Part shown: positions 10,120 to 52,436 of the stretch, in pieces
Layout: each line of letters begins with the position of its first letter
Numbering within the stretch: the stretch's first letter is position 1
Source: an uncultured Candidatus Saccharibacteria bacterium
Lineage (GTDB): Bacteria > Patescibacteriota > Minisyncoccia > Phycocordibacterales > WO2-35-19
Reading direction: 5' to 3'
Assembly (NCBI GenBank): GCA_964548205.1
Contig: CAZJPJ010000002.1
Coordinates: 69,737 to 133,736, forward strand
DNA: 64,000 nucleotides
The notes under the pieces: generated by a model
Database searches by the model: none
Told to the model about the DNA's origin: nothing
What the model saw: only the letters and a program-made list of their open reading frames with translations
Translations under genes and position numbers: made by a program

Positions 10120-10192
10120 GCCGATATAGCTCAGGTAGTAGAGCATTCCCATGGTAAGGGAAAGGTCGTCAGTGCAAATCTGGCTATCGGCT
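10120..10192 (+). tRNA. tRNA-Thr (anticodon GGT), atypical T-loop
   Basis: Hand-folded cloverleaf: acceptor gccgata/tatcggc, D-stem gctc/gagc, anticodon stem ttccc/gggaa with loop atGGTaa, T-stem gtcag/ctggc. T-loop reads tgcaaat (G at position 55), which is unusual. Confidence 0.5.
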
Positions 10193-11231: not shown

Positions 11232-11305
11232 GCCGAAGTAGCTTAGTTGGTAAAGCAATGCTTTCGTAAAGCAGAGAGCGTGGGTTCAAGTCCCACCTTC
11301 GGCTC
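11232..11305 (+). tRNA. tRNA-Thr (anticodon CGT)
   Basis: Cloverleaf: acceptor gccgaag/cttcggc, D-arm gctt...aagc, anticodon loop ttCGTaa, T-arm gtggg-ttcaagt-cccac. Confidence 0.8.
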
Positions 11306-18266: not shown

Positions 18267-18337
18267 GCTGCCGGTCAGGGACTCGAACCCCAATACTCGC
18301 CTCCAGAGGGCGATGTCCTACCATTAGACGAACCGGC
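18267..18337 (-). tRNA. tRNA-Gln (anticodon CTG)
   Basis: Reverse complement folds with U1-A72 acceptor TGCCGGT/ACCGGCA, D-arm GTCT..GGAC, anticodon stem TCGCC/GGCGA with loop ctCTGga, T-arm TGGGG-TTCGAGT-CCCTG, discriminator G. U1-A72 and G73 are typical of bacterial tRNA-Gln. Confidence 0.8.
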
Positions 18338-18617
18338 AATACGTATAAATATTACATTTTTGCCTGTTTTTTTCCAGTTAAGCTCTTGTTTTGCTTGGGC
18401 TGGACTCTAGACCCACTCTTGTGTATAAAGAAAAAGTGGTAAGATTGGCAGCATAGAAACAAGTAACAAATGAAAAATTTTTCTGAGATATTTATAGCAA
18501 ACCAAGGTGAAGACGTATGGCTGACTCACGGGTTGCACTTGTAAATGGGGAAGTAAAAGAGATGACATACAATGAGTTTAAAATGAGTAATGTTTGAACG
18601 CGTGTTAATATGCATAT

Positions 18618-24246: not shown

Positions 24247-24344
24247 TTTGTTAAATATTTTTTAATCAACATCAAATTGTGTAGCCATATTATATTATAC
24301 CCAATTATTTTGGTAATAAAGGGCTTAAATTATATAATTAGTAC

Positions 24345-26195
24345 GTGATTGTGATCAGAAAAAGATATTCTGTCGCTTTTTGGCTTGTTGGAGCCTTTCT
24401 TGTCGCATCTATCATTGGCAATACTGTTACTGTAAAAGCTAATACCTACAATCTTTATTCTACCTCTTGTCTTGGGGGTTGGGAGAATACCAATCTTGCT
24501 GTAGGAAAGCCAGATGTATCACCTGAATCACCCTTGTATAACGAAGGTAATAGCGCACGACTTTCGGGTAATGCTCATGCTCAGATATACTGCGGAGGAT
24601 TCTATGGAGATGTAATCGAAAATACTGTGCCAAAAAAAATATCTGTAAAATTTTCTTGGGCAGTAGAGTATCCAAATTTCGGTGTAAATAATTCAGATTC
24701 AAGTACAGAAGAAGTTTATAGTTCGGATATCATTTCGGAAGACCAAACCGAATCTGAGACATTAAAAACAAGTGAACCTCAAGAAAAAGACCTAGAAATG
24801 AGTTTAGTCGAAGGAGATTCGTTAGATATTGGGGAAGTGCAAGGTGAGAGTATAGAGAGTTATGACGAAGATGAAATAGTGTCAGGAACGGAGGATTTTT
24901 CTAAATCAGAAGAATCACAAAATGAAATAGTTGAAGTCAAAGATGATGAATCCACATTAGATAGTGACAACGGGGGTACTTCTCTGCCGAGTGATATTGA
25001 GGAAAATTTGGCTGTACCCCCTGAACAATCTGAGTCAGTATCTGGAACAGAATTACAACCGGAATCTGATGTTGCATCTGATCCTATTTCTAAGAAAGAT
25101 TTTATGCCCTGGTATATCACTATGTTTGCAAGCATTGCAAATGCGCAAGGGGTAGAAGAAGAAAATACAAACACACAAGAAAGCACAGATTTCGAGGAAT
25201 CCTCTGGGGTCATTATTGAATTAGAGGATAATGCTGAAAATGATGCAAATAATAATATAGCCACAAGTACAAACAATAGCGTAGACAATACCGCTAAATT
25301 TCTCGATGCCCCTTCTGGTCTTGTAGAAGTCTTTTATACTCTAGATGGTATAGATTGGAAGAGTATGGGTTATGTGGGCAGTGATGAATTTCAGGGTAAA
25401 TATTTTGAAATCCCAATAGAAGAGGCTTCGAGTTGGGAAGACATATCAAAGATACAAATAAGTGTTCAAAGTACGTCTATAATAGACGTAAGGATACCTA
25501 CGTTATATTTAGACTCAATATGGATAGAAGTAGACTATGAACTTGGAGAAGTGCAGAAATTAGATGGTCCACATGTTTATGATAAAGATGTAATTATAGA
25601 CCCACAAGCAAAACATTCTTGTGCAGTCAATCCTTCTTCTTTGTCACTTCAGTATGGCACAGATTATAAAGCGATAGTTTCCCTTGCTTTCTCTGGGGAC
25701 CCTAGTCCTACATTAGAAACTGTTAACGGAGATCAAAATGAAAATACTGATGAAAATAATGAACAATCACCCAAACGTACTAGGTTCGGTTTTATCGATA
25801 TAGGCGCTCTACCGCGTGGTATAGATGTGAGGTTTTTTTCAACTACTACTCCGTATAGTTACTTGATTGATGAATATGGCCCAGATAATATTGAGATTAA
25901 CGTAAGTATATATACACAGGATGCACAAAGAGGCTCTTTTAGTATCCCGTTTATTTTTACAAAGACAAAAGGTAAAGATTCATCTACTATTTGCCAACTA
26001 AACCTCATATATTCTCAATCAGATACTGTAATAAATCATGAAGTGGTGCCAACAGAGTCAATAAATTATAGCGATATCCCGGGTGACGTTTTTTTTGAAG
26101 ATGTCTCGCGCGAAAATGACACAGGACGTGAAGATCTTAAACAAGAAATTATTGAAGAAGAAAATCAGGCCGCTATAATTGATCATGATTTATGA
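24345..26195 (+). CDS. Secreted highly acidic protein (signal peptide, Asp/Glu/Ser-rich region, C-terminal beta-rich domain)
   Basis: 616 aa. N-terminal signal/TM segment. Residues ~120-320 are low-complexity acidic. Confidence 0.55.
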   Translation: MIVIRKRYSVAFWLVGAFLVASIIGNTVTVKANTYNLYSTSCLGGWENTNLAVGKPDVSPESPLYNEGNSARLSGNAHAQIYCGGFYGDVIENTVPKKISVKFSWAVEYPNFGVNNSDSSTEEVYSSDIISEDQTESETLKTSEPQEKDLEMSLVEGDSLDIGEVQGESIESYDEDEIVSGTEDFSKSEESQNEIVEVKDDESTLDSDNGGTSLPSDIEENLAVPPEQSESVSGTELQPESDVASDPISKKDFMPWYITMFASIANAQGVEEENTNTQESTDFEESSGVIIELEDNAENDANNNIATSTNNSVDNTAKFLDAPSGLVEVFYTLDGIDWKSMGYVGSDEFQGKYFEIPIEEASSWEDISKIQISVQSTSIIDVRIPTLYLDSIWIEVDYELGEVQKLDGPHVYDKDVIIDPQAKHSCAVNPSSLSLQYGTDYKAIVSLAFSGDPSPTLETVNGDQNENTDENNEQSPKRTRFGFIDIGALPRGIDVRFFSTTTPYSYLIDEYGPDNIEINVSIYTQDAQRGSFSIPFIFTKTKGKDSSTICQLNLIYSQSDTVINHEVVPTESINYSDIPGDVFFEDVSRENDTGREDLKQEIIEEENQAAIIDHDL

Positions 26196-27196
26196 GTATG
26201 GATAGGTCGTCTAAAATTAATAAAAAAAATATTGTAGAAAAATTTACAATGAGGTCAGTGCTAATACTATGCATTGTGCTCCTTGTAATTAGTAATATTA
26301 CAACTTTGGTGCTGTATGTTTTTGGTTCAAGTGAGAGTATAGATCAGTTTAGAGAAAAATATCCTCTGATTGATGTCTCTAGACACTTAATTTCGCAAGA
26401 CCATTTTATTTCAACTCTCCAGCCACTAAGGGAAAGTCTGAATAGTGTTGTCGAGAGGAATGGTAAAGGTGTTATATCTATATATTTCGAATATTTAAAT
26501 ACTGGAGCGAATATATCTATCAATGAGGACCTAAGGATGTTCCCAGCATCATTAGTGAAAGTGCCTCTTGCTATGGCTGTTATGAAAAAGGTGGAGAGAG
26601 GTGATTGGCTTATGCATAACGAACTCGTTCTTATGAAGGAGGATAGAGATTATGCTTGGGGAGATGTGCATAAGCGTCCTATTGGGACACGTATAAGTAT
26701 AGACGATCTTTTACACGAGATGCTCGTATCATCTGATAATACTGCTTTCCGTATGCTTTATCGCAATCTTTCCTTTGATGAATTACAAGATGTTTTGGTG
26801 GCTGTTGGGCTTGAAGAGTTATTTAACGAAGATGGTAAGATCACGGTCAAAGAGTATACTAGACTTTTTCGGGCCTTATATACATCAAGTTATCTTAATC
26901 GAGAAAACTCGCAAAAAATTATTGATATCTTAACCAAGACTTCTTACGATGAATATTTAGGCCAAGGGGTGCCAGATAATGTTTTATTTGCACACAAGAT
27001 AGGTGAGAATGATGAGGCTGAAGTGATACTCGATACCGGTATTGTGTATATAGAAAATAGACCATACCTTATCTCCGTCGCTATTGATTACGGTACTACA
27101 AACATAGGCCGCGATGGAGCTCTCGAGATACTAAAAGAAGTATCCAAGATGAGTTATGATTATATTTTGAATTATGATACGCAAGGTGCTCCGTAA
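26192..27196 (+). CDS. Class A beta-lactamase-like serine hydrolase
   Basis: S-x-x-K (ASLVK), SDN loop (VSSDNTAFRML, compare TEM MSDNTAANLL), and K[T/S]G-like HKIGEN. Membrane-anchored N-terminus. Confidence 0.6.
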   Translation: MSMDRSSKINKKNIVEKFTMRSVLILCIVLLVISNITTLVLYVFGSSESIDQFREKYPLIDVSRHLISQDHFISTLQPLRESLNSVVERNGKGVISIYFEYLNTGANISINEDLRMFPASLVKVPLAMAVMKKVERGDWLMHNELVLMKEDRDYAWGDVHKRPIGTRISIDDLLHEMLVSSDNTAFRMLYRNLSFDELQDVLVAVGLEELFNEDGKITVKEYTRLFRALYTSSYLNRENSQKIIDILTKTSYDEYLGQGVPDNVLFAHKIGENDEAEVILDTGIVYIENRPYLISVAIDYGTTNIGRDGALEILKEVSKMSYDYILNYDTQGAP

Positions 27197-30100
27197 TATA
27201 ATAAGGGGCTTTGCTTCTGTATTTTTGATATTAGCCATCTTTTTTATAGGTGTGCCATTTGATGGTATTGTTCATATTATAGAAGAGCGCAATATAGTCG
27301 ACCTACTATATAAGGCAGAAAAAAGTAGCAATGTAGTCGACAGCCTTTTCAAAGATATTGTCTTACCAAAGACCGAAAAAACTAGTGCGGCGACTAATGA
27401 TGCGATGCTCGTCTTCAACTCTAAAGTTGGGACATCTACCATGCAGTATAGGGTCTGGAATGGAAGTTCTTGGGGGAGTGAGTCAACAACCTCTGATTTT
27501 CATGGCTCAGAGATTCGTTGGGCCCAGATGAAATATGCGCCAAATCGTGATGAGGCTATTTTAGTAGTACTTACAAATACAGGTCAAGTACAAGCGCAAA
27601 TATACGATGGTAGTTTCTGGGGGGAAACTACTATTTTATCGACCTTGAGTGACTTAAATGGAAGTTCTGATGGAGGTTCTTTATACAGAGGATTCGATGT
27701 TGAGTATGAACAATCTTCAGGAGACGCTATTGTTGTTTCTGGAGATGGCACGGCGGATCCAAATTATCATGTTTGGGATGGGTCTACGTGGAGTTTGAAT
27801 AATAATATCGATATCCCAACTACAGGGAGACCAAACTGGATTGAGCTTGCTGCTCCTATGGCTACGACCACTAATGATTCTTTGGCACTTATTACATTAG
27901 ATTCAAACAGTGATATATATGGCATGCGTTGGACTGGTAGCTCTTGGGATAATATGGGGGTAACAACTACTTGGGATGCGGCCGCAAGTATCTCGACAAG
28001 GAAAGCGATAGATGTTGCGTTTGAGACAGGCACTGGAGATATCATGTTCTTATGGGGTGATTCTGTTGCTGCTGACGATCACAATTATCGTACTTATGCT
28101 GGTGGGGCTTTGAGTAGTATTGTTGCTCTTCCTAACTCAAATGCTGGAGGTCAGCCAAACTGGGTAAGGCTCGCACCAAATACTACCTCTGGTGCAAACG
28201 TAAATCAGATAATGCTTGGCACCTTGGACTCCGCTGCTGATCTATCCACTTTTATTTGGAGCGGTACTGCTTGGAGCGCTGTGCATGCAGAGCATTCTGC
28301 TGCCGTAGAGAATGCTGCTGTTCAACAGGATTTTGAAATTGTCTTTGAGACTCATGTATCAAATCCTGATGATGCGTGGCTCTTATGGAACAATGGTTCA
28401 ACAGTTTCTAGGAAATTATGGAATGGCCCTACTGCTGCCTGGGGTTCAGCTACGACAGTGGGAGATGATAGCGCCGGGTTGGTATTAAATTCACATCCCA
28501 ATAATGGAGCCGTGCTTGCTGGTATATATGAAGATACAAGTTCAGCCTCTGATGATATTAGTGAAATACATTTGACGGGTGGGAGTCAGACATGGTCTTC
28601 GCTTGCTGATTTTTGGACAGGACCAGTGCAAAGAGAGATCGGTCTTCTTCGTATGGCGCAAGCGGTGCAAAGTTATAATAATTCAAATGAAGCCATGGTT
28701 GCTTATGTTACAGAAGGGAGCACCTCGTATCCTCAGTATGCGCGTTGGAATGGTTCTTCTTGGGGCAGTGTTGCATCTACATCTCCTACCGCTGGCGAGA
28801 TTAGACACATGGTACTAAAGGCTGCTCCTACTAGAGATGAGCTCATGCTCGTTACCTTAGGTCATACTGGTCAAGTGCAGGCTCAGGTATACAGTGGTGA
28901 GAGTGGAGCTTGGGGTTCTGCTCAATTGTTAAACACTATGAATAATTCACAGGGTACTAGGGATACCCAGTCTTTATATAGAGGTTTTGACATTGAGTAT
29001 GAGAGTGCTTCAGGAGATGCTATCGTGGTGACTGGAGATGGCACGGCGGATCCAAATTATCATGTCTGGGATGGGAGCTCTTGGACGGGGCCTACTGACA
29101 TAAATATTCCAAATACAGGTCGCCCGAATTGGATAGAGTTGGCTGCACCACTCGCTACTACTACAAACGATTCACTCGCTTTTATATTGGTGGATAGTAA
29201 TGTTGATGTATATGGTATGCGATGGACTGGAAGTGCGTGGGACAATATGGGGGCTGCCGCAGTATGGGATGCGACAGGTGCTATTGCCACTGAAAAATCT
29301 GTTGACGTGGCTTTTGAAACAGGAAGCGGGGACATTATGTTTATATGGGGAGATTCGGTATCTACTGATCAATACTACCGGACTTATTCTGGAGGATCGT
29401 TATCTGCCGCTACTCTTCTTGATAATGCACAAGCTGGAGCTGTAAACAACTGGATGCGTCTTGCTCCAAATCCTACAGGTGGCTCTTTCCAAGATCAAAT
29501 CCTCTATGCAGTTCTCGACGGCGGTTCGGACCTCAATACATTTATGTGGAGCGGTACTGCTTGGAGTAGTGTGCACACTGAACACACTGCTGCTGCAGAA
29601 AATCATTCTAATCAGGTTTTTGATATTGCGTTTGAAACCCACTCCTCAAATCCTGATGATGCATGGCTTGCTTATGGGGATGGAAATACCATATCTCGTA
29701 AGCTTTGGAATGGTGCAACACAAACGTGGGGTAGCGCTACAACTCAAGGAGATGACACTGACTATATTGCTCTCAATGCTCATCCCAATACAGGAGCATT
29801 CTTTATGGCCGCTTATGAAAGTTCTGCTTCTGCTTCTGATGACGCCACCATCAATAATCTTAGTGGAGGCTCTCAAACATGGGGATCTGCAACAAGTATC
29901 TGGCCTGGTCCTGTTGGACGTGTTGGCTTAGGTCTTACACAAATTGCGATTGCTAGTGATCGATATCAATCTCCTACATTTGAACAATCTGCCTACCGTC
30001 TATTTACAAACACAAACTCGGCTGATGTAGGAAGCCCTCTTGCTCTGCAAGACACTTCGGCAACTCTTAGTTCTACCGGAGATGCTTTTAGACTCAGAAC

Positions 30101-31064
30101 ACTTATTCATGTGGGGAGTAACCAGCTCACAACTGGGTCTACTAGTTTCAAGTTGCAGTATGCCGAAAAGTCAGGCACTTGCGATACTTCATTTTCGGGG
30201 GAAACTTATGCTGATGTGACAGGTGCTACCCCCATAGCTTTTAATGACAACGCTTCGCCTGTGGATGGAGCGTCATTGGTTGCAAATGTAAATGATCCGA
30301 CCCATGGTGGGCACGCTATAGTAAATCAGGATTATGAGGAATCTAATAATTTTACTAACTCTGAGGCTGCTATACCGGCAGGTCAGGATGGTAAGTGGGA
30401 TTTCTCACTTATAGATAATGGTGCACCAGCAAATACAAGCTATTGTTTTAGAATTGTAAAATCAGGAGGTGCATTGCTCGATACATATACTGTCATTCCT
30501 GAGGTAAGTACTGCGGACGGTGCGCCGTCACTTACATTTACAGTGACTACCAATAACTTCGGCTCTATTGTTCCGGGTTTCCCAGTTTTTGCTACCAGCA
30601 CTCTTTCTGTAAATACAAATAATTCGTCTGGATGGTTTGTGACTGTTTCAGCAGATGATGTTACTGACACAGTTCAAACAATGGATCTAACAACTGATAC
30701 AAATATTGAGATTATGGACCTTGATCCTCAATGGATCGCTCCTGTATCAACTACAACGACTAGTAATGCTATATCCATAACTAATGGTCAGAATGCTCTA
30801 GCTTTCAGGGTGATGACTGCAAGTGGTACGACTTCTTTCCGTTCTACTTCTTGGTGGGGGAGTGGAGATGATCCTTATACTACGGCACGATGGGCTGGCT
30901 TTGCTAGTTCTAGTGCCCCGACTACAAATTTGAAGATAGGTATATCAAGCACTGATTCTGGCGGAGAAGCTATTAATACTATCCAATATTATTTGGATGT
31001 ATCAGAGAGTCAATTGAGCGGGGACTATTCTGGGTCTATTACCTTTACTGCTGTTGCAAACTAA
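27174..31064 (+). CDS. Giant secreted protein: two tandem ~420-aa beta-propeller-like lectin-type repeats plus a ~200-aa C-terminal domain shared with the next gene
   Basis: 1296 aa. Blade-like motifs recur every ~50 aa (YRVWNGSSWG, YHVWDGSTWS, YGMRWTGSSWD, FIWSGTAWS). The whole block is duplicated (aa ~78-505 and ~505-930). The C-terminal region aligns with ORF 31166-31858. Confidence 0.75.
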   Translation: MIRKVLRNIIRGFASVFLILAIFFIGVPFDGIVHIIEERNIVDLLYKAEKSSNVVDSLFKDIVLPKTEKTSAATNDAMLVFNSKVGTSTMQYRVWNGSSWGSESTTSDFHGSEIRWAQMKYAPNRDEAILVVLTNTGQVQAQIYDGSFWGETTILSTLSDLNGSSDGGSLYRGFDVEYEQSSGDAIVVSGDGTADPNYHVWDGSTWSLNNNIDIPTTGRPNWIELAAPMATTTNDSLALITLDSNSDIYGMRWTGSSWDNMGVTTTWDAAASISTRKAIDVAFETGTGDIMFLWGDSVAADDHNYRTYAGGALSSIVALPNSNAGGQPNWVRLAPNTTSGANVNQIMLGTLDSAADLSTFIWSGTAWSAVHAEHSAAVENAAVQQDFEIVFETHVSNPDDAWLLWNNGSTVSRKLWNGPTAAWGSATTVGDDSAGLVLNSHPNNGAVLAGIYEDTSSASDDISEIHLTGGSQTWSSLADFWTGPVQREIGLLRMAQAVQSYNNSNEAMVAYVTEGSTSYPQYARWNGSSWGSVASTSPTAGEIRHMVLKAAPTRDELMLVTLGHTGQVQAQVYSGESGAWGSAQLLNTMNNSQGTRDTQSLYRGFDIEYESASGDAIVVTGDGTADPNYHVWDGSSWTGPTDINIPNTGRPNWIELAAPLATTTNDSLAFILVDSNVDVYGMRWTGSAWDNMGAAAVWDATGAIATEKSVDVAFETGSGDIMFIWGDSVSTDQYYRTYSGGSLSAATLLDNAQAGAVNNWMRLAPNPTGGSFQDQILYAVLDGGSDLNTFMWSGTAWSSVHTEHTAAAENHSNQVFDIAFETHSSNPDDAWLAYGDGNTISRKLWNGATQTWGSATTQGDDTDYIALNAHPNTGAFFMAAYESSASASDDATINNLSGGSQTWGSATSIWPGPVGRVGLGLTQIAIASDRYQSPTFEQSAYRLFTNTNSADVGSPLALQDTSATLSSTGDAFRLRTLIHVGSNQLTTGSTSFKLQYAEKSGTCDTSFSGETYADVTGATPIAFNDNASPVDGASLVANVNDPTHGGHAIVNQDYEESNNFTNSEAAIPAGQDGKWDFSLIDNGAPANTSYCFRIVKSGGALLDTYTVIPEVSTADGAPSLTFTVTTNNFGSIVPGFPVFATSTLSVNTNNSSGWFVTVSADDVTDTVQTMDLTTDTNIEIMDLDPQWIAPVSTTTTSNAISITNGQNALAFRVMTASGTTSFRSTSWWGSGDDPYTTARWAGFASSSAPTTNLKIGISSTDSGGEAINTIQYYLDVSESQLSGDYSGSITFTAVAN

Positions 31065-31165
31065 GTAAAGTTTTTGTTTTATGGACTGTGGATATCGTCT
31101 TGTAATATGTACCTTTTCAAAATAAAATTAAGAGGTCAGTTCTTCCTTATTAATATAAAAAAGAA

Positions 31166-31858
31166 ATGAAAATAGAATACATTAGTAGTTTTAGTAAATC
31201 TGATACAAGGTTGCTTGCTTTTTGTTTGGCTGTATCTTTCTTGGTCACCAGTTTGTTTTATGTAAATTATGCTAAGGGTGAAGCTGTGGTGCTTACTGTT
31301 ACTGTCCAGTCCACTCTTTCTTTTTCAACCACTTCTGATAATTTCGGCAACATTACTCCCGGTAGTCCGAAGTTTGCTACTACAACTCTTGCTCTTTCTA
31401 CAAACAATACTCCAGGATGGAATATTATTCTTTCCGGAGATGATCAAGGTACATCGAATGAAGTATGTGATTTAGACAGTGATGCTTCGGTAGGTCTTAC
31501 TGATCAAGCAGAATGGGTCCCGGGTGCAGCTACGACTACAGCTGGTAATGCTGTCCGTATAGGTTCATTTGATAATTCAGGTGACGTTTTAGCTTTTCGA
31601 GTGATGACCGCAAGTGGTAGCGCCCCTTTTAGATCTACTTCTTGGTGGGGAAGTTCTGATACATATACTGATAATGCGAGCACCCTGTGGGCTGGTATAT
31701 CGAGTTCTTCGCCATCAAGACAGATAGGTAATGCAGGTAATGGTTCTTATAGCGCAAGTACTCATTTGAATACAGTATTGTATTATCTTGATGTTCCTGC
31801 TTCTCAGCAGACGGGTGCTTATAGTTGCCCACTTACATTTACAGCAACAGCCAATTAG
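31166..31858 (+). CDS. Secreted protein consisting of the C-terminal domain shared with the giant propeller protein (WxL-like cell-surface domain candidate)
   Basis: Signal peptide. TVTVQSTLSFSTTSDNFGNITPGSPKFATTTLALSTNNTPGW...LAFRVMTASG..FRSTSWWGS...YYLDV...TFTATAN is colinear with the last ~200 aa of the giant protein. Confidence 0.65.
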   Translation: MKIEYISSFSKSDTRLLAFCLAVSFLVTSLFYVNYAKGEAVVLTVTVQSTLSFSTTSDNFGNITPGSPKFATTTLALSTNNTPGWNIILSGDDQGTSNEVCDLDSDASVGLTDQAEWVPGAATTTAGNAVRIGSFDNSGDVLAFRVMTASGSAPFRSTSWWGSSDTYTDNASTLWAGISSSSPSRQIGNAGNGSYSASTHLNTVLYYLDVPASQQTGAYSCPLTFTATAN

Positions 31859-31868
31859 AAGTCTATAA

Positions 31869-32795
31869 ATGACGTCAATTATTAAAAAAATCGTTGTCTG
31901 TTCTATCGTAACAGTGGCTTTAGGAGTTGAGCTTGTGTCTGCAAGTACTGGCCTTTCAATACAACCAGTAAAGGTAAGTCACACCTTAACTCCTGGAGAT
32001 GAAGTATCGGGTATTATTTCATTGAAAAATGAAAGTGGTGAAAGAATTGCGGTCGATGTAAGTGTCGAAGACTTCACACCTTCGGCAGGAACAACAAACA
32101 TATCGTTTGTAGGTAGGGCAGATGGCAATACTACGGTTAGGGATTGGGTCACTCTGGATGTACCAAGTAATTTTTTCTTTGAATCTGGTGAAAGTAAACA
32201 AATCAAATATACTATCAAAGCTCCTCAGGATGCAGAGCCGGGGAGTCATTTTGGGGTTTCTTTTTTTAAAGCATACAAACCTGAAGATCAGAGTCAGCTC
32301 AAGGTTAGTACTAGGATAGGGATGCTAATGTTCGTGACTATTCCAGGAAATCAACTTCAGAGTGGAAGAGTTCTAGATTTTAAATCCCCATTATTTCTTC
32401 AGAGAGGTCCAGTGCCGTTTACGATAAAGTACGAAAATACTGGGACTGTTCACTTTGAACCCAAGGGTAAAATTGAGATAAAAAATATCTTGGGTAAAAA
32501 AGTTGGGGAAGTGGAGGTTGCAGGTCAAGCTGTTCTACCAACTGGTATAAGAGACCTTGAAGCGGCATGGAACGAGGGAGGTCTTGTGTTCGGTCGTTAT
32601 ACCGCCAACCTAACCATACAGGATGGCGAAGGTAATGTCATGAATTCAGAACAGATTTCCTTTTATGGATTTCCATTGATGTATACAGGTGGTTTTATTT
32701 TCTTGGCTTTTATAATATTTGTATTAGTCAAATTTTTGAAGAGAAGACTACATATAAATATAAGTGTTGGTAAAAAGGATGATACAATGATGTAA
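31869..32795 (+). CDS. Membrane-anchored cell-surface protein (DUF916/DUF3324-like architecture)
   Basis: Signal peptide, ~250-aa beta-rich ectodomain, C-terminal TM helix plus basic tail (GGFIFLAFIIFVLVKFLKRR). This architecture, and its position after two proteins sharing a C-terminal domain, recall Gram-positive csc/WxL clusters. Family call is tentative. Confidence 0.45.
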   Translation: MTSIIKKIVVCSIVTVALGVELVSASTGLSIQPVKVSHTLTPGDEVSGIISLKNESGERIAVDVSVEDFTPSAGTTNISFVGRADGNTTVRDWVTLDVPSNFFFESGESKQIKYTIKAPQDAEPGSHFGVSFFKAYKPEDQSQLKVSTRIGMLMFVTIPGNQLQSGRVLDFKSPLFLQRGPVPFTIKYENTGTVHFEPKGKIEIKNILGKKVGEVEVAGQAVLPTGIRDLEAAWNEGGLVFGRYTANLTIQDGEGNVMNSEQISFYGFPLMYTGGFIFLAFIIFVLVKFLKRRLHINISVGKKDDTMM

Positions 32796-33820
32796 TGATG
32801 GGCCTGCGCTTCCACTTTATTTCTCTGTTTTTTATATTATTTTTTTTCTTAATTTTTAATCAAATTATTGCTAGCTCTACAACTTTGAGAGTGGTTGTTG
32901 TAGGAGATAAACAGTGTAATGACGGTATTGACAACGATGGGGACAACCTCATCGATTATTTGGGTGACCCTGGGTGTGACACCTCAATTGATGATGATGA
33001 AAGTAATCCATCTACTGGTGGTGGGGGCGGTTCTGGTGGTGGAGGAGGCGGTGGGGGTGGTACAACGGTATCTAGTCAGTCTCTTACTGGGGTAATATTT
33101 AGGGGGGTAGCCTACCCAAATAGTAGCGTTTTTATACTAAAAAACGGTAGCATAGTGGCTTCCACTATATCTGGACCTGATGCTAGGTTTGATGTACTCA
33201 TTAACAACATATCTTCTGGAAACTATACTTTCAGTATTTATGCTACAGATGCTAATGGTATGTCATCTACACCCAAAGTCTTTTCTATTAGTTTGATATC
33301 AGGTTCTACAGCCACAGTGAGTGATATTTTTCTTTCCCCAACAATATCAACTGATAAAGTAGAAGTGAGAAGAGGTGATCCGATTGTACTGTTCGGTCAA
33401 GGAGCGCCTGAGTCAAAAGTAACGATCGTAGTAAATTCTGAAAATGAGATAATAAAAGAAAAAAACACTGATACTAAGGGGGTTTGGTCGTATCAGTTAG
33501 ATTCTATCTTACTTGAAAATGGAGACCATGAAGCAAAAAGTAGAATTTCTTCTTCTGAATCAGTTAGTCCTTTTTCTAAATCTGTATTTTTTAAAGTTGG
33601 TAATGTAAATAAGAATAGAGACAAAGAACCAAATACACTCAGAAAAGGTGACCTCAATAGTGATGGAAAAGTGAATCTAGTGGACTTTTCTATCGCGGCA
33701 TTTTGGTATAGGAAGCAGTTGTCCGGAGATATAATAGAAAGGGAATTAGAAAGATTAAATGCTGATAGCAAAATAGATCTAAAAGATTTTAGCATTATTG
33801 CTTATTGGTGGACTGGTTAA
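32795..33820 (+). CDS. Secreted protein with a Cys-bounded DNDGDG calcium-binding motif, Gly-rich linker, Ig-like domains and C-terminal dockerin-like repeats
   Basis: CNDGIDNDGDNLIDYLGDPGC; a GGGGGSGGGGGGGGG linker; two dockerin-type calcium-binding repeats (DLNSDGKVNLVDFSIAAFWY, ADSKIDLKDFSIIAYWW). Confidence 0.6.
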   Translation: MMGLRFHFISLFFILFFFLIFNQIIASSTTLRVVVVGDKQCNDGIDNDGDNLIDYLGDPGCDTSIDDDESNPSTGGGGGSGGGGGGGGGTTVSSQSLTGVIFRGVAYPNSSVFILKNGSIVASTISGPDARFDVLINNISSGNYTFSIYATDANGMSSTPKVFSISLISGSTATVSDIFLSPTISTDKVEVRRGDPIVLFGQGAPESKVTIVVNSENEIIKEKNTDTKGVWSYQLDSILLENGDHEAKSRISSSESVSPFSKSVFFKVGNVNKNRDKEPNTLRKGDLNSDGKVNLVDFSIAAFWYRKQLSGDIIERELERLNADSKIDLKDFSIIAYWWTG

Positions 33821-34730
33821 TATGAAAAAAATATTTAAAATACTAATTATACTCTCTGTTAGCTCTACCCCACTTCTCAGTAGTGCGGCTGTTTTTGGAG
33901 TCGATAAAAATAACATAAGCCCATCTGATAGTTCAGAATTATTTTTAGACGTTTATGTAGATACTGAGGGTGAGGCTATAAATACTTTTGCGGGAGAGCT
34001 ATTTATACCAGATTTTATTCAGGTAAAAAAAATATACTATGGAAATTCTATAATAAATACTTGGATCCAAACACCAGAATACATAAATAATAGCATCATT
34101 TTTTCTGGAGTTGTGCCAGGGGGGTTTGAAAGAGATGTAAATCCTCTAAGTAAACTTGGTACCAAGGGGTTGCTTTTTCAGGCGTTAGTATCAATTGAAA
34201 ATAGAGAAGAATTAGAACAAGGAAAGGGAGAAAAGGAATTATTATTTTTAAGTGCCGAAGCTTTTTTGAATGACGGCGAAGGTACAAGTGCCAAAGTAAA
34301 ATTTAAAGAAATCGATGTTACCAAATCCGTTGGCGGATCAAGTTATGAAGTACCCGTTGTTACTGATAGGCTTTCTCCGGAATCAATAAATTATGAGATA
34401 AGCAGAGATCGTTCTATTTTCAATAATAAGTATTTTGTATCTTTTTATTCTGAAGATAGGCATTCTGGGGTCAATAGGTATGAGATATGTGAGTCTTGGT
34501 TGCCATTGCCTTACCCGTATACTTGTATCGGTAAGTGGTATGAGGCTTCCAGTCCATATCTCCTCACTGACCAATCACTCAGAAGTGATATTTATATCAA
34601 AATTTATGATGTAGAGAATAATGTGTATACAAAAGTTATTTATCCTAAGCACAGCTCTGTCTTATATACTTTCTATCTTATTGGTATAATTTTGTTGTTG
34701 GTTTTTTATAAGTATTATATAAAAAGATAA
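33798..34730 (+). CDS. Cohesin-like domain protein with C-terminal membrane anchor
   Basis: Signal peptide, N-terminal ~150-aa beta-sandwich region resembling cohesin modules, C-terminal TM helix (FYLIGIILLLVFY). Confidence 0.45.
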   Translation: MLIGGLVNMKKIFKILIILSVSSTPLLSSAAVFGVDKNNISPSDSSELFLDVYVDTEGEAINTFAGELFIPDFIQVKKIYYGNSIINTWIQTPEYINNSIIFSGVVPGGFERDVNPLSKLGTKGLLFQALVSIENREELEQGKGEKELLFLSAEAFLNDGEGTSAKVKFKEIDVTKSVGGSSYEVPVVTDRLSPESINYEISRDRSIFNNKYFVSFYSEDRHSGVNRYEICESWLPLPYPYTCIGKWYEASSPYLLTDQSLRSDIYIKIYDVENNVYTKVIYPKHSSVLYTFYLIGIILLLVFYKYYIKR

Positions 34731-34738
34731 AACAAAAA

Positions 34739-36178
34739 TTGAAATTTTATAAATCTAAAATTTTTTTATTTTCATTTCTGTTTGTCTTAGCTTTTGTTTT
34801 GTTGCCCTCAGTTACAAATGCCGCAAGTCTGTATTTCAATCCTTCCAGTTCTGAGTATAAGATAGGCGATTCTTTTTTTGTAAATGTTGTCATTGATAGT
34901 GCTGATAAGTCTATCAACGCACTCTCTGGAAGTATCGATTTCTCAAGCGATGTTTTAGAGGTTGTTTCTATAAGCAAAACTGGCTCAATTGTAAATTTTT
35001 GGGTACAGGAACCAAATTATTCTAATGCCAATGGGAGTGTCAGTTTTGAGGGTGTTGTACCGAATCCTGGGTTTATAGGTAATGTCGGTCGTGTTATAAC
35101 CATAAATTTTAAGGTAAAAAGAGCTGGGCTGGCAAAACTTGCGTATTCATCTGCTTCTGTTTTGGCGAATGACGGTTTGGGTACAAATATTCTTTCTGGT
35201 GTAAAGGGCGCCACTTTCTCTATCAAGGAAGCTTTGGTTGTACCACAAATAAAATCAGATTTAGATGTTATTGATAATAGTCCTTCTATATTGAACTCAA
35301 TAAAAGAAGCCCCAAGAGAGGATAAGACTGTTCCGATTGTGGGGCTTGAGTATGTTTTAAATCAAAAAGTTTCTGATGAATATAAGTATCAAGTTTATAT
35401 CGGAGGGTTTGGACCTACAGATTGGCAAACTGATACAGATAAGATTTTTAGTACAAGTCCGTTACAGCCAGGAGAGCATACAATAAGAGTTGTAATATCA
35501 GATCGGAAGGGTAATGAATATACAAAGATTTTTAATGTTTATGTAGCTCCTCTTGAAAGGCCAACTCTTAATCAGACTCTCAGTATTGTAAATTCCGATG
35601 AACCTATTGTGGTAAACGGTTATTCGAGCTATGTAGGAGAGAGGGTTATGCTTCATATAAAGAACAATGATGGAAGTTTTATAAAAAAATATGAGGTGGT
35701 TATAAAATCTGATGGTACTTTCTCCATAATAGGCGATAAGCTAGGTAGCGATGTTTATACAATGTACGTAGAGGTTGTAAGGCAAGATGGAGCAAGAAGT
35801 CTGCCTACAGAATCAGTGACATTCCTTGTAAGAAGCTCAAATATTTTAAGGCTCGGTAATTTGGCTATAAGTTACCTCTCTATCATTGTTACCCTTCTTT
35901 TGCTTATAGCCGGAGCGATTGTGCTCGGGCTATTTATCTTGAGGTATGTCTATGTCTACAATCGCAAAGTCAAAAAATGGCGTGAAAATGTCGATACTGA
36001 GGTCTCTCGCGGAGTTTCAGATCTTGAGTCTGAGATAGATTATCTAATTTCTCAGTTTGATGGTAAGCCAAACCTGAGTTCTAAAGAAAAGGAAATGCTG
36101 GATAAGATAACAGCTCTCTTGGAGAGGTATCGACATAATGTTGTTAAAAAACTTGGTAAAGAAATAAAGTCTGAATAG
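34739..36178 (+). CDS. Cohesin-like domain protein with Ig-like middle region and C-terminal membrane anchor
   Basis: Signal peptide. The N-terminal module LYFNPSSSEYKIGDSFFVNVVIDSADKSINALSGSIDFSSDVLEVVSI resembles type-I cohesins. C-terminal TM helix plus cytoplasmic coiled-coil tail. Confidence 0.5.
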   Translation: MKFYKSKIFLFSFLFVLAFVLLPSVTNAASLYFNPSSSEYKIGDSFFVNVVIDSADKSINALSGSIDFSSDVLEVVSISKTGSIVNFWVQEPNYSNANGSVSFEGVVPNPGFIGNVGRVITINFKVKRAGLAKLAYSSASVLANDGLGTNILSGVKGATFSIKEALVVPQIKSDLDVIDNSPSILNSIKEAPREDKTVPIVGLEYVLNQKVSDEYKYQVYIGGFGPTDWQTDTDKIFSTSPLQPGEHTIRVVISDRKGNEYTKIFNVYVAPLERPTLNQTLSIVNSDEPIVVNGYSSYVGERVMLHIKNNDGSFIKKYEVVIKSDGTFSIIGDKLGSDVYTMYVEVVRQDGARSLPTESVTFLVRSSNILRLGNLAISYLSIIVTLLLLIAGAIVLGLFILRYVYVYNRKVKKWRENVDTEVSRGVSDLESEIDYLISQFDGKPNLSSKEKEMLDKITALLERYRHNVVKKLGKEIKSE

Positions 36179-36197
36179 AAATCTAAATATAAGAAAA

Positions 36198-36225
36198 GCC
36201 CCCGGCGCGTACCCGCGCCGGGGGC
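36198..36225. terminator. Bidirectional GC-rich terminator hairpin between convergent genes
   Basis: gcccccggcgcg-tacc-cgcgccgggggc, a perfect 12-bp stem. Confidence 0.6.
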
Positions 36226-36235
36226 TGAAGGCTGT

Positions 36236-37429
36236 TTACCACGATACAACAATGATCATGGCAAGGTAGCCCAAAAGGAATCCTGCGGGCACAAACCATC
36301 CCTCAACTACCCATCGGATGATATTCTTCGCCTCTGGAAACTGCCCAGAGGCGACCACCCCTGCGCTTGAGCCAAACCAAGTGTTGCTACCACCAGTGCC
36401 AACGGCGTAGCATAGGTAGGCCCAATTGTAACCACCTTGGGACAAGGCTAGCTTGGTTAGCGGAATGTTGTCCAGAAATCCGGAGAACACCCCAATCCAA
36501 AACGTCGATAAGATGCTTGCAATTGGGAGTTGGTCGATCGGCATCATCGACGCCGACAGTACCAAACATAGTAGGAATGAGACACTACCCACTGCATGCC
36601 TCAACCCGACAATATCGAACTCAAAATGCAAACTCCTTATCGGTAAAAATGACACGCAAACCCCGATAAAGGCTGCCGCGCCCACCCAGGGAAATGAGTC
36701 GGCGTACTCTTTGAAGCTCATGTTGACGATAGTGTTGACCCCCGCTGCAAATGACAGTATCCCAACAACCCACCACAGATACTCGGTCTTTATTCTTATG
36801 TTTTTTACCGGGTCAATCTGTATGGGGCTGATAGCTTGTTGCATCCGCCCTGCGAAGAATGCTACAAACAGGACGTTTACAACAGAACCGACGATTGCCG
36901 GTGCGATTTCTAGCACAGAGACACCGGAAATCCACGCCATAGTTGTGGTGGTGTCGCCGATAACACTCCATGCTCCACCTGCATTTGCACATGCTACAAT
37001 TCCAGCCAAATATCCAATTGTTATTTGTGTGAATACTACTTTGGCAATGGTTCCGCCTATGATTGTGGATGCAATGTTGTCTAGAAATGCAGATCCTGTT
37101 GCTACCATGAGCAACAGGAAAAAACCACCCCGCCAGTTGTCTGGCAGGATCTTAGGGAGCCAGTCTGGTACCAGGCTGGCTTTGAAGTACTGACCAAGCA
37201 CTTCAAAGCTAAATATGAGAGCTAATATGTTTGCCCCCAATACCCATTCGTGGCCTAAGTGTTCCATGAGTGGGTTAAGCCCAATGTGACCTTTGAACCC
37301 AAAGCCAAAGGTTTTGACCGCGGCGATGGTTAACATCCCCGCAATCGCAATTCTGAGATTGTGCTCGTGGTATTTGTTAATACCAAAGAGCATTAAAAAA
37401 AGTAGCCCAAAAAGGGCGATTGCTTCCAT
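36236..37429 (-). CDS. NhaD/ArsB-superfamily ion transporter (Na+/H+ antiporter NhaD-like)
   Basis: 397 aa, ~11 TM helices, duplicated motif regions (FLDNIASTIIGG / FLDNIPLTKLAL). GC content is clearly higher than flanking genes. Confidence 0.6.
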   Translation of the reverse strand: MEAIALFGLLFLMLFGINKYHEHNLRIAIAGMLTIAAVKTFGFGFKGHIGLNPLMEHLGHEWVLGANILALIFSFEVLGQYFKASLVPDWLPKILPDNWRGGFFLLLMVATGSAFLDNIASTIIGGTIAKVVFTQITIGYLAGIVACANAGGAWSVIGDTTTTMAWISGVSVLEIAPAIVGSVVNVLFVAFFAGRMQQAISPIQIDPVKNIRIKTEYLWWVVGILSFAAGVNTIVNMSFKEYADSFPWVGAAAFIGVCVSFLPIRSLHFEFDIVGLRHAVGSVSFLLCLVLSASMMPIDQLPIASILSTFWIGVFSGFLDNIPLTKLALSQGGYNWAYLCYAVGTGGSNTWFGSSAGVVASGQFPEAKNIIRWVVEGWFVPAGFLLGYLAMIIVVSW

Positions 37430-52359: not shown

Positions 52360-52436
52360 GCCGGGGTAGCTCAGTTGGTAGTAGCGCTCCCCTGAAGAGG
52401 GATAGGTCGGCGGTTCAAGTCCGCCCCCCGGCACCA
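52360..52436 (+). tRNA. tRNA-Phe (anticodon GAA) with encoded CCA
   Basis: Acceptor gccgggg/ccccggc, D-arm gctc-agttggtag-tagc, anticodon loop ctGAAga, T-arm ggcgg-ttcaagt-ccgcc, discriminator A, CCA. Confidence 0.85.

Follow-up and report, generated by a model that had tools for sequence, protein, structure and literature searches.

Two recently described surface systems come closest to the locus presented here. The WxL clusters of Lactobacillales and Bacillales encode a small and a large WxL protein together with a WxLIP consisting of a DUF916 domain, a DUF3324 domain and a transmembrane (TM) helix which anchors it; in an AlphaFold2 prediction, a strand of the DUF916 β-hairpin inserts into the WxL domain (Hassan, Chaudhuri and Williamson 2023, PMC10599100). 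The Pam pilus of Ca. Mycosynbacter amalyticus is built from the immunoglobulin (Ig)-like pilins PamA/B, joined by strand exchange, together with the single-domain tip pilin PamT and the TM-anchored, PapD-like chaperones PamC/D, and it lacks an usher; propellers, adhesins or WxL are not mentioned in its description (Troman et al. 2026 preprint, 10.64898/2026.03.03.709456). In addition, PilX2 of TM7x, a minor pilin required for host binding, carries a seven-bladed RCC1 propeller which resembles PLL lectins and PilY1 (PMC11623550). Here we analyse a stretch of 64,000 nucleotides from an uncultured Candidatus Saccharibacteria bacterium (contig CAZJPJ010000002.1 of assembly GCA_964548205.1, positions 69,737 to 133,736), in the following referred to as the window. 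It harbours an operon whose central gene codes for a protein of 1296 residues with two tandem β-propellers. With a probability of roughly 0.6 we consider this protein a cell-surface adhesin by which a bacterium of the Candidate Phyla Radiation (CPR) attaches to its host, the propellers forming the head and a C-terminal pilin-like domain being plugged into an assembly of a small subunit encoded next to it.

The interval 27408-29960, to which a first-pass annotation made from the letters of the window had drawn attention, corresponds to residues 79-929 and lies completely within one open reading frame (ORF) of the plus strand (27174-31064). The gene and the parts of its product are as follows (pLDDT, predicted local distance difference test).

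27174-31064, plus strand: putative adhesin gene, 1296 residues, stop codon included in the coordinates; an identical protein, P0001, is present in the public collection, encoded on a contig of 136 kb.
27174-27392, plus strand: N-terminal signal/anchor helix (residues ~12-28) and juxtamembrane segment of ~45 residues (29-73), supported by sequence and by comparison of N-termini.
27393-28682, plus strand: β-propeller 1 (residues 74-503) with eight four-stranded blades, supported by AlphaFold2/DSSP, Foldseek, hhalign periodicity and blade register.
28683-29963, plus strand: β-propeller 2 (residues 504-930), which also has eight blades and shares 59% identity with the first propeller, supported by unit alignment, AlphaFold2 and blade register.
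29964-30518, plus strand: middle β-sandwich or "stalk" domain (residues 931-1115), AlphaFold2 model m98c58b5d39a3, residues 1-190, pLDDT ~95.
30519-31061, plus strand: C-terminal pilin-like/WxL-like Ig-type domain (residues 1116-1296), paralogous to the small subunit without the N-terminal strand of the latter.

The AlphaFold2 model of both propeller units (mdaabbb3d8ef5), calculated for residues 60-935 with an alignment of 34 sequences, reaches a mean pLDDT of 87 and is all-β, DSSP assigning ~32 strands to each unit. This number agrees with eight blades of four strands each, closed in a 1+3 manner. Nearly all of the top 50 matches obtained with Foldseek from the PDB (E 1e-15 to 1e-12) contain propeller domains, and those at E ~1e-15 are mostly tandem propellers, namely LRP2/LRP6, ROS1/Sevenless, WD40 tandems, tricorn and Xgh74A; a search of viral structures returned generic propeller proteins only. 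The propeller fold, which the first-pass annotation had proposed on account of W-x-G-S-x-W type blade motifs, is thus borne out, and so are the motifs themselves. Five clear W-x-G-x-x-W copies are present per unit, at residues 95, 201, 253, 362 and 416 in unit 1 and at 525, 632, 684, 792 and 845 in unit 2, accompanied by three degenerate copies each (145, 305 and 469; 578, 736 and 898). The number of repeats, given there as about seven per unit, has to be corrected to eight: self-comparison of a profile built from a 75-unit alignment (hhalign) reveals off-diagonal shifts of ~108 (E 2e-35), ~52 (E 8e-16), ~213, ~158, ~267 and ~324 residues, from which we deduce eight blades of ~53 residues per unit, grouped as four two-blade super-repeats.

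The same annotation had described a propeller unit of ~420 residues duplicated within a single gene. Indeed, unit 1 (residues 74-503) and unit 2 (residues 504-930), each ~428 residues long, share 59% identity over 431 residues (E 1e-175; BLASTP of residues 71-510 against residues 501-940). The designation "giant", in contrast, goes too far since a protein of 1296 residues is large for a CPR genome, yet not giant. The duplication is old, as the DNA of the two units can be aligned over 716 nucleotides only, with 68% identity. Within the clade to which the window protein belongs, unit 2 is 62-79% identical to unit 2 of other members, whereas unit 1 compared with unit 2 reaches 52-60%. Hence, each unit resembles the corresponding unit of homologues more than it resembles its partner within the protein, which means that the duplication predates the lineages of this clade. 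More distant relatives show an intra-protein unit identity of 95% (P0035, encoded at L004 10001-13189) and 89% (P0032), compared with 59% in the window. This indicates that in some lineages the tandem either has an independent origin or is kept uniform by gene conversion.

The N-terminal signal/anchor helix assigns the protein to the extracytoplasmic space, in line with the initial proposal of a secreted protein. In distant homologues an ordinary cleavable signal peptide directly abuts the first blade. The segment comprising residues 29-73 (27258-27392) follows the pattern PF[DE]G...R[ED]GN[IV]VD.LY.A.K..NVVD, which is kept in the window clade only.

The propellers are followed by two β-sandwich domains, the second of which (residues 1116-1296) is predicted less confidently by AlphaFold2 than the stalk. 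The stalk is kept in most two-propeller homologues and matches no family of Pfam or NCBIfam. The C-terminal domain is related to the product of the next gene, which in turn is followed by the gene of a putative membrane-anchored partner.

31166-31858, plus strand: small secreted subunit of 230 residues with signal peptide, candidate donor strand (EAVVLTVTVQST) and one pilin-like domain.
31869-32795, plus strand: chaperone/anchor candidate of 308 residues with signal peptide, β-rich ectodomain and C-terminal TM helix, distantly WxLIP (DUF916)-like.

The last ~180 residues of the adhesin align with the whole mature small subunit at 45% identity (E 2e-45). The same paralogy between a large and a small protein, in divergent sequences, recurs in the related loci L001 (60%, E 1e-58), L011 (43%, E 6e-45) and L002 (42-44%, E ~1e-35) and is thus present in four lineages. 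L002, which stems from Gracilibacteria using genetic code 25, contains two small genes, the window a single one. A comparison of the window, L001 and L002 reveals that the small proteins possess an extra strand of alternating hydrophobic residues ahead of the shared domain (VVLTVTV, VSVSATV or FTLTV). At the same boundary the large proteins carry a conserved polar linker, Y-x-x-x-P-E/Q-I/V-S/T-T-A. In the small protein of L001 the strand is preceded by an entire additional N-terminal domain, which results in the layout of N-terminal domain, linker and C-terminal domain (NTD-linker-CTD) known from PamA/PamB. An adhesin devoid of the N-terminal strand could accept but not donate a strand, which in a donor-strand-exchange fibre would place it at the tip. 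Among the models of NCBIfam, CPR_Pam_pilin_C (NF058581) weakly recognises both the C-terminal domain of the adhesin (E 9e-5, 22.5 bits) and the small subunit (E 5e-4, 20.3 bits); the former shows a weak PamT match as well. With the two-domain C-terminal model, Foldseek finds tandem Ig-like proteins and, at E 1e-5 to 1e-4, the tip adhesins CsuE, CfaE and FimH.

In L001, L002 and L004 as well as in the window, the gene of the chaperone-like protein is linked to that of a propeller protein. Weak matches to PF06030 (WxLIP_PGBD, formerly DUF916) are observed in 18 of 35 members of its family (best E 5e-4). The homologue located beside the two-propeller gene of L004 matches this model above the gathering cutoff (E 2e-11) and is connected to the window protein by tblastn (E 5e-12). 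In L002 and L004 the chaperone-like protein additionally bears LysM wall-binding repeats. A single member out of the 35 shows a marginal "fimbrial chaperone" match (E 0.031). No Pam chaperone match was obtained from NCBIfam for the 308-residue protein or its family, although this library may hold no such model, and none of the operon proteins matches an usher or PapD model of Pfam. Both families are abundant in Parcubacteria-type CPR genomes and unannotated, with 437 matches in CPR for the small subunit and 473 for the chaperone-like protein; several matches of the one and the other family agree exactly in the length of their longest contig, which suggests that they share contigs.

Outside the window, homologous propellers are encoded within operons of type IV pili (T4P). 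In L007 of Saccharibacteria a two-propeller homologue comes after a pair of pilin genes, PilB, PilC and one minor pilin and precedes a PilV-like minor pilin, which is the position occupied by PilY1. A single-propeller homologue with the prepilin N-terminus G|FSxxE is encoded in L006 behind T2SSE, T2SSF and a pilin. Likewise, the archaeal locus L013 contains a homologue with an archaeal pilin-type N-terminus behind T2SSE and two T2SSF genes. PilX_N or N_methyl models match 11 of 62 mid-sized representatives of the family, and bacterial or archaeal pilin-like N-termini are present in roughly 40 of these 62 as judged by eye. The propeller gene of the window lies outside any T4P operon according to Pfam and NCBIfam scans of the window. 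Given the pilus or wall-platform context here and in the related loci, together with the precedent of PilX2 (PMC11623550), the host-cell binding which the first-pass annotation had suggested appears reasonable.

In the arrangement which we prefer, the adhesin would be exported by the Sec pathway, whereupon its two eight-bladed propellers would form the distal, ligand-binding head, with the β-sandwich domain (residues 931-1115) serving as stalk. The C-terminal Ig-like domain would connect the adhesin with an assembly built of the neighbouring small subunit, assisted by the membrane-anchored protein resembling WxLIP and Pam chaperones. If this assembly is a donor-strand-exchange fibre, the adhesin would occupy the distal tip, following the logic of FimH, PapG and CsuE; on a WxL-type platform it would be found on the outside. 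In either case the propellers may bind a structure of the host surface, possibly a glycan. Several observations weigh against this proposal. That the small subunit polymerises and that the adhesin is located at the tip are what we infer, as is the kind of ligand, and all links to Pam and WxL are either architectural or below the family cutoffs. The NF058581 matches score far under the curated cutoff of 55 bits and extend over only some third of that model. PF13731, the WxL model, matches neither the C-terminal domain nor the small subunit at E<=10 (nor, at E<=1, the small proteins of L001, L002 and L004), and the chaperone-like protein of the window reaches E 0.17 only with PF06030. The structural matches of the C-terminal part are generically Ig-like with TM-scores of 0.2-0.3, and as integrin legs and Fabs score alike, the appearance of CsuE, CfaE and FimH is suggestive only. 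In L012 propeller and β-lactamase-like genes are present while no small paralogue or chaperone-like gene is detectable. Finally, no obvious signal-peptidase site is found in the ~45 conserved residues following the N-terminal helix in the window clade; this helix may therefore remain uncleaved and tether the protein at its N-terminus, which would poorly fit a distal tip position.

As an alternative to a fibre, the shared C-terminal domain might bind the cell wall and the TM-anchored WxLIP-like protein might stabilise the small and the large protein in a non-polymerising, peptidoglycan-bound platform like the WxL cluster of Firmicutes, the propellers then projecting from the wall rather than from a fibre tip. 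The three-gene layout is that of the WxL clusters (PMC10599100), PF06030 is the only family which the chaperone-like protein consistently resembles, and the LysM repeats of its L002 and L004 homologues as well as the single small-subunit gene of the window would suit such a platform. We nevertheless regard it as doubtful since, apart from the missing PF13731 match, the only hidden Markov model (HMM) similarity of the shared domain is that to Pam pilins, and the conserved, hydrophobic-alternating strand of the small subunit together with the NTD-linker-CTD layout in L001 resembles the polymerising PamA/PamB. A further alternative concerns the head. On the reading that starts from the first-pass annotation, the protein would be a secreted, multivalent lectin of the RSL/AAL or tectonin/tachylectin type, binding host glycans in Trp-lined pockets between the blades. 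The blades do follow the pattern [YF]-x-[VW]-W-[DN]-G-S-x-W, which we take to be similar to W-x-W-D-G-x-G-W of RSL. Tectonins and tachylectin possess five or six blades of ~35-45 residues. Membership in these families is unsupported, given the eight ~53-residue blades, as opposed to five to seven shorter ones, and given that Pfam yields no fungal-lectin, tectonin or tachylectin model for the adhesin at E<=1. Nor does any RSL, AAL, PLL, tectonin or tachylectin chain appear in the PDB at E<=10, be it by phmmer with the whole protein or with profiles of the two units or of blade pairs, and none is contained in the Foldseek top 50, a list dominated by tandem propellers. The blade alignment retains the Trp residues, while no conserved Glu of the RSL type occupies the position three residues ahead of the first Trp and, as far as the sequences tell, neither Glu nor Arg of the RSL site has a conserved counterpart in the blades. 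Matches of DUF2510, presumably on blades, in 7 of 62 relatives speak for the lectin reading, as does the example of PilX2, which resembles PLL fucose lectins and whose host binding is inhibited by rhamnose (PMC11623550). A glycan ligand is plausible by analogy; a lectin of the named families we nonetheless consider improbable. Still less do we believe in catalytic propellers, i.e. a glycoside hydrolase, a sialidase-like or another hydrolase acting on host envelope polymers. It is true that Foldseek matches the xyloglucanase Xgh74A, that the viral library gives sialidase/BNR-like propellers and that in every second blade the inner strand ends in a nearly invariant acidic residue (FD-x-x-YE motif; E76). 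Yet Pfam, PDB and profile searches detect no hydrolase family, a tandem-duplicated catalytic propeller would be unusual, and the repeated fusion to pilins and to adhesin-type Ig, cadherin and fn3 domains also argues for attachment rather than catalysis.

The propeller unit defines a sizeable family to which no model is assigned. When 1.84 billion representatives were searched exhaustively with unit 1 by phmmer, at least 1178 clusters (defined at 50% identity) were obtained at E<=1e-3, among which 827 reach E<=1e-10 and 200 reach E<=1e-30. Named relatives belong to CPR lineages (Pacebacteria, Gracilibacteria, Saccharibacteria, WWE3, Peribacteria) and to archaea (Hadarchaeales, Methanosarcinales). 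Some relatives fuse the unit with cadherin-like, Big, fn3, LamG, RCC1 or C25-peptidase domains, all of them extracellular. Searches of Pfam, NCBIfam and PDB with the whole protein gave nothing specific for the propeller units; the sole match, Peptidase_M60_C at E 0.035, was dismissed as a chance hit. PDB searches with profiles from the two-unit, C-terminal, chaperone and blade-pair alignments produced low-complexity or marginal matches only (SNF5, Q-beta A1, Epx1 at E 0.005, DUF4374 at E 0.13). A PQQ_2 match in the relative P0052 raised the idea of a divergent eight-bladed propeller of the PQQ/BamB type, which was rejected because this match (residues 430-614) is located outside the region homologous to the unit (residues 28-392). 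DUF2510 is the only Pfam model touching the blades in some relatives (the seven of alignment A4 referred to above, best E 7.6e-6). We take it to be a short R-Y-W-D-G-x-x-W motif, so that its matches presumably fall on blades, and it may represent a single-hairpin relative of the blade found in the window.

Three observations concern individual homologues. Faint precomputed matches to PF26696 (PTL_trimer) are recorded for P0009, P0013, P0017 and others, as well as at L005 9421-10035 and L012 1779-7334; they include a fragment of 204 residues consisting of signal peptide and first blades only, and a literature search on PTL_trimer remained empty. In WWE3 (L005 9421-12784) a two-propeller gene is split into ORFs of 204 and 927 residues overlapping by 35 nucleotides, which reflects a frameshift, a misassembly or a pseudogene. 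The database translations of the Gracilibacteria homologues P0006-P0015 (L002 10001-13855) show Trp where relatives have Gly, e.g. TSWDIMF compared with TSGDIMF. Evidently, UGA was read as Trp (code 4) and not as Gly (code 25), which inflates the Trp content of these entries.

The adhesin gene is part of a nine-gene operon on the plus strand (24345-36178) which is preceded by a promoter-like site at 24310-24338. Besides the genes already described it comprises the following features.

24345-26195, plus strand: operon gene 1, secreted or anchored protein of 616 residues with an acidic, Ser/Glu/Asp-rich low-complexity middle.
26192-27196, plus strand: membrane-anchored class-A β-lactamase/PBP-like protein of 334 residues (PF13354 Beta-lactamase2, E 2.7e-43).
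32795-36178, plus strand: Big_6/dockerin-like protein (341 residues) plus a pair of cohesin-like proteins with a TM anchor (310 and 479 residues).

The 616-residue protein matches neither Pfam nor NCBIfam; L001, L002 and L011 encode conserved counterparts of its C-terminal ~150 residues upstream of the adhesin gene. The β-lactamase-like gene shares 23 nucleotides at its 3' end with the start of the adhesin gene. Its product retains the motifs SLVK (S-x-x-K) and SDN, KTG being replaced by KIG. In five loci belonging to different CPR lineages, a PF13354 gene is found directly upstream of a two-propeller gene and in most of them overlaps it (window 26192-27196; L001 9034-10017; L002 9037-10014; L011 1473-2450; L012 703-1677), and a homologue is also placed directly upstream of the propeller gene in L003. 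Wall remodelling and transpeptidation are possibilities for the role of this protein beside the adhesin. Downstream, the 341-residue protein matches Big_6 of Pfam (3.9e-7) and, weakly, dockerin, and it carries the acidic disulfide motif CNDGxDNDGDxLIDYP near its N-terminus. Some homologues of the three downstream proteins have precomputed Cohesin matches, and Big_6/dockerin and cohesin-like genes are kept downstream of the adhesin in L001 (16001-20352), L011 (8490-12095) and L012 (7529-11624). Judged by these domains, the arrangement suggests a cohesin-dockerin surface scaffold encoded in the adhesin operon. Between the end of the operon at 36178 and an NhaD-like gene of the minus strand (36236-37429), a strong hairpin with a perfect, GC-rich 13-bp stem and T-runs (36197-36226) likely acts as a bidirectional terminator. 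The window further contains four tRNA genes (10120-10192, 11232-11304, 18268-18338 on the minus strand, and 52360-52433); rRNA or further Rfam families are absent from its 64 kb.

How CPR bacteria recognise and attach to their hosts is a central question for which few adhesins are known, PilX2 of TM7x being the one tested. Propeller adhesins displayed on a pilus or on the wall have already been described; new is a propeller family devoid of a model which is joined to a pilin/WxL-like anchor. In bringing these together the operon bridges WxL clusters and Pam pili. If our assignment is true, the protein would be the missing tip adhesin for Pam-like fibres, its propeller would constitute a new Pfam domain family, and it would provide a marker for host-range determinants in metagenomes. 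A more far-reaching notion, which we put forward as tentative, considers the propeller a portable host-recognition head which episymbiotic or small-celled prokaryotes, i.e. CPR bacteria and archaea including DPANN/TACK-type lineages, might mount on bacterial T4P, on archaeal T4-like pili and on a WxL/Pam-like strand-exchange assembly. The window locus would then be a missing link which unites WxL clusters and Pam pili in one usher-less, chaperone-assisted pathway with a tip adhesin.

Compared with the known systems, the locus exhibits the architecture of a WxL cluster and weak signals to both WxL and Pam, while missing the curated thresholds of each. As in WxL clusters, a small protein consists of signal peptide and shared domain, a large protein combines putative host-binding domains with a C-terminal copy of this domain, and a putative β-rich partner with signal peptide and C-terminal TM helix gives a PF06030-like signal. 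The sharing of a domain between small and large protein, which characterises this layout, is observed in the window, L001, L002 and L011. In contrast to WxL clusters, the WxL model of Pfam fails to match the shared domain, the organism belongs to the CPR, the head is a tandem of eight-bladed propellers, and β-lactamase-like as well as cohesin/dockerin-like genes are added to the operon. With the Pam pilus the locus has in common its origin from the CPR, Ig-like subunits exported by Sec, a strand ahead of the C-terminal domain, TM-anchored chaperone candidates and the lack of an usher. Its small subunit, however, is a single domain with an N-terminal strand instead of an NTD-linker-CTD protein, and its similarity to CPR_Pam_pilin_C and PamT is weak and far below the family cutoffs.

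FimH, PapG, CfaE and CsuE resemble the adhesin in architecture only, in that a part for receptor binding, putative in the adhesin, takes up the N-terminal side and a pilin domain without its own donor strand the C-terminus. They share no sequence similarity with it, and unlike in these systems there is neither an outer membrane nor an usher, and two propellers plus stalk take the place of a single jelly-roll lectin domain. PilY1, whose C-terminal propeller is located at the T4P tip, and PilX2 parallel the family in that a propeller head is presented by a pilus. They differ from the window protein, which has eight blades, is encoded outside a T4P operon and remains unmatched by the PilY1 propeller and RCC1 models of Pfam at E<=1. 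With RSL/AAL, PLL, tectonins and tachylectin-2, finally, the units share the propeller fold and a hairpin motif of the Trp-x-Gly-x-x-Trp type in most blades. They are set apart from these lectins by the number and length of their blades, by the lack of sequence or profile similarity and, as judged from the sequences, by the lack of a conserved Arg/Glu pair; RSL/AAL propellers are made up of six blades, either six in tandem or a trimer of two-blade units, whereas the unit of the window comprises eight.

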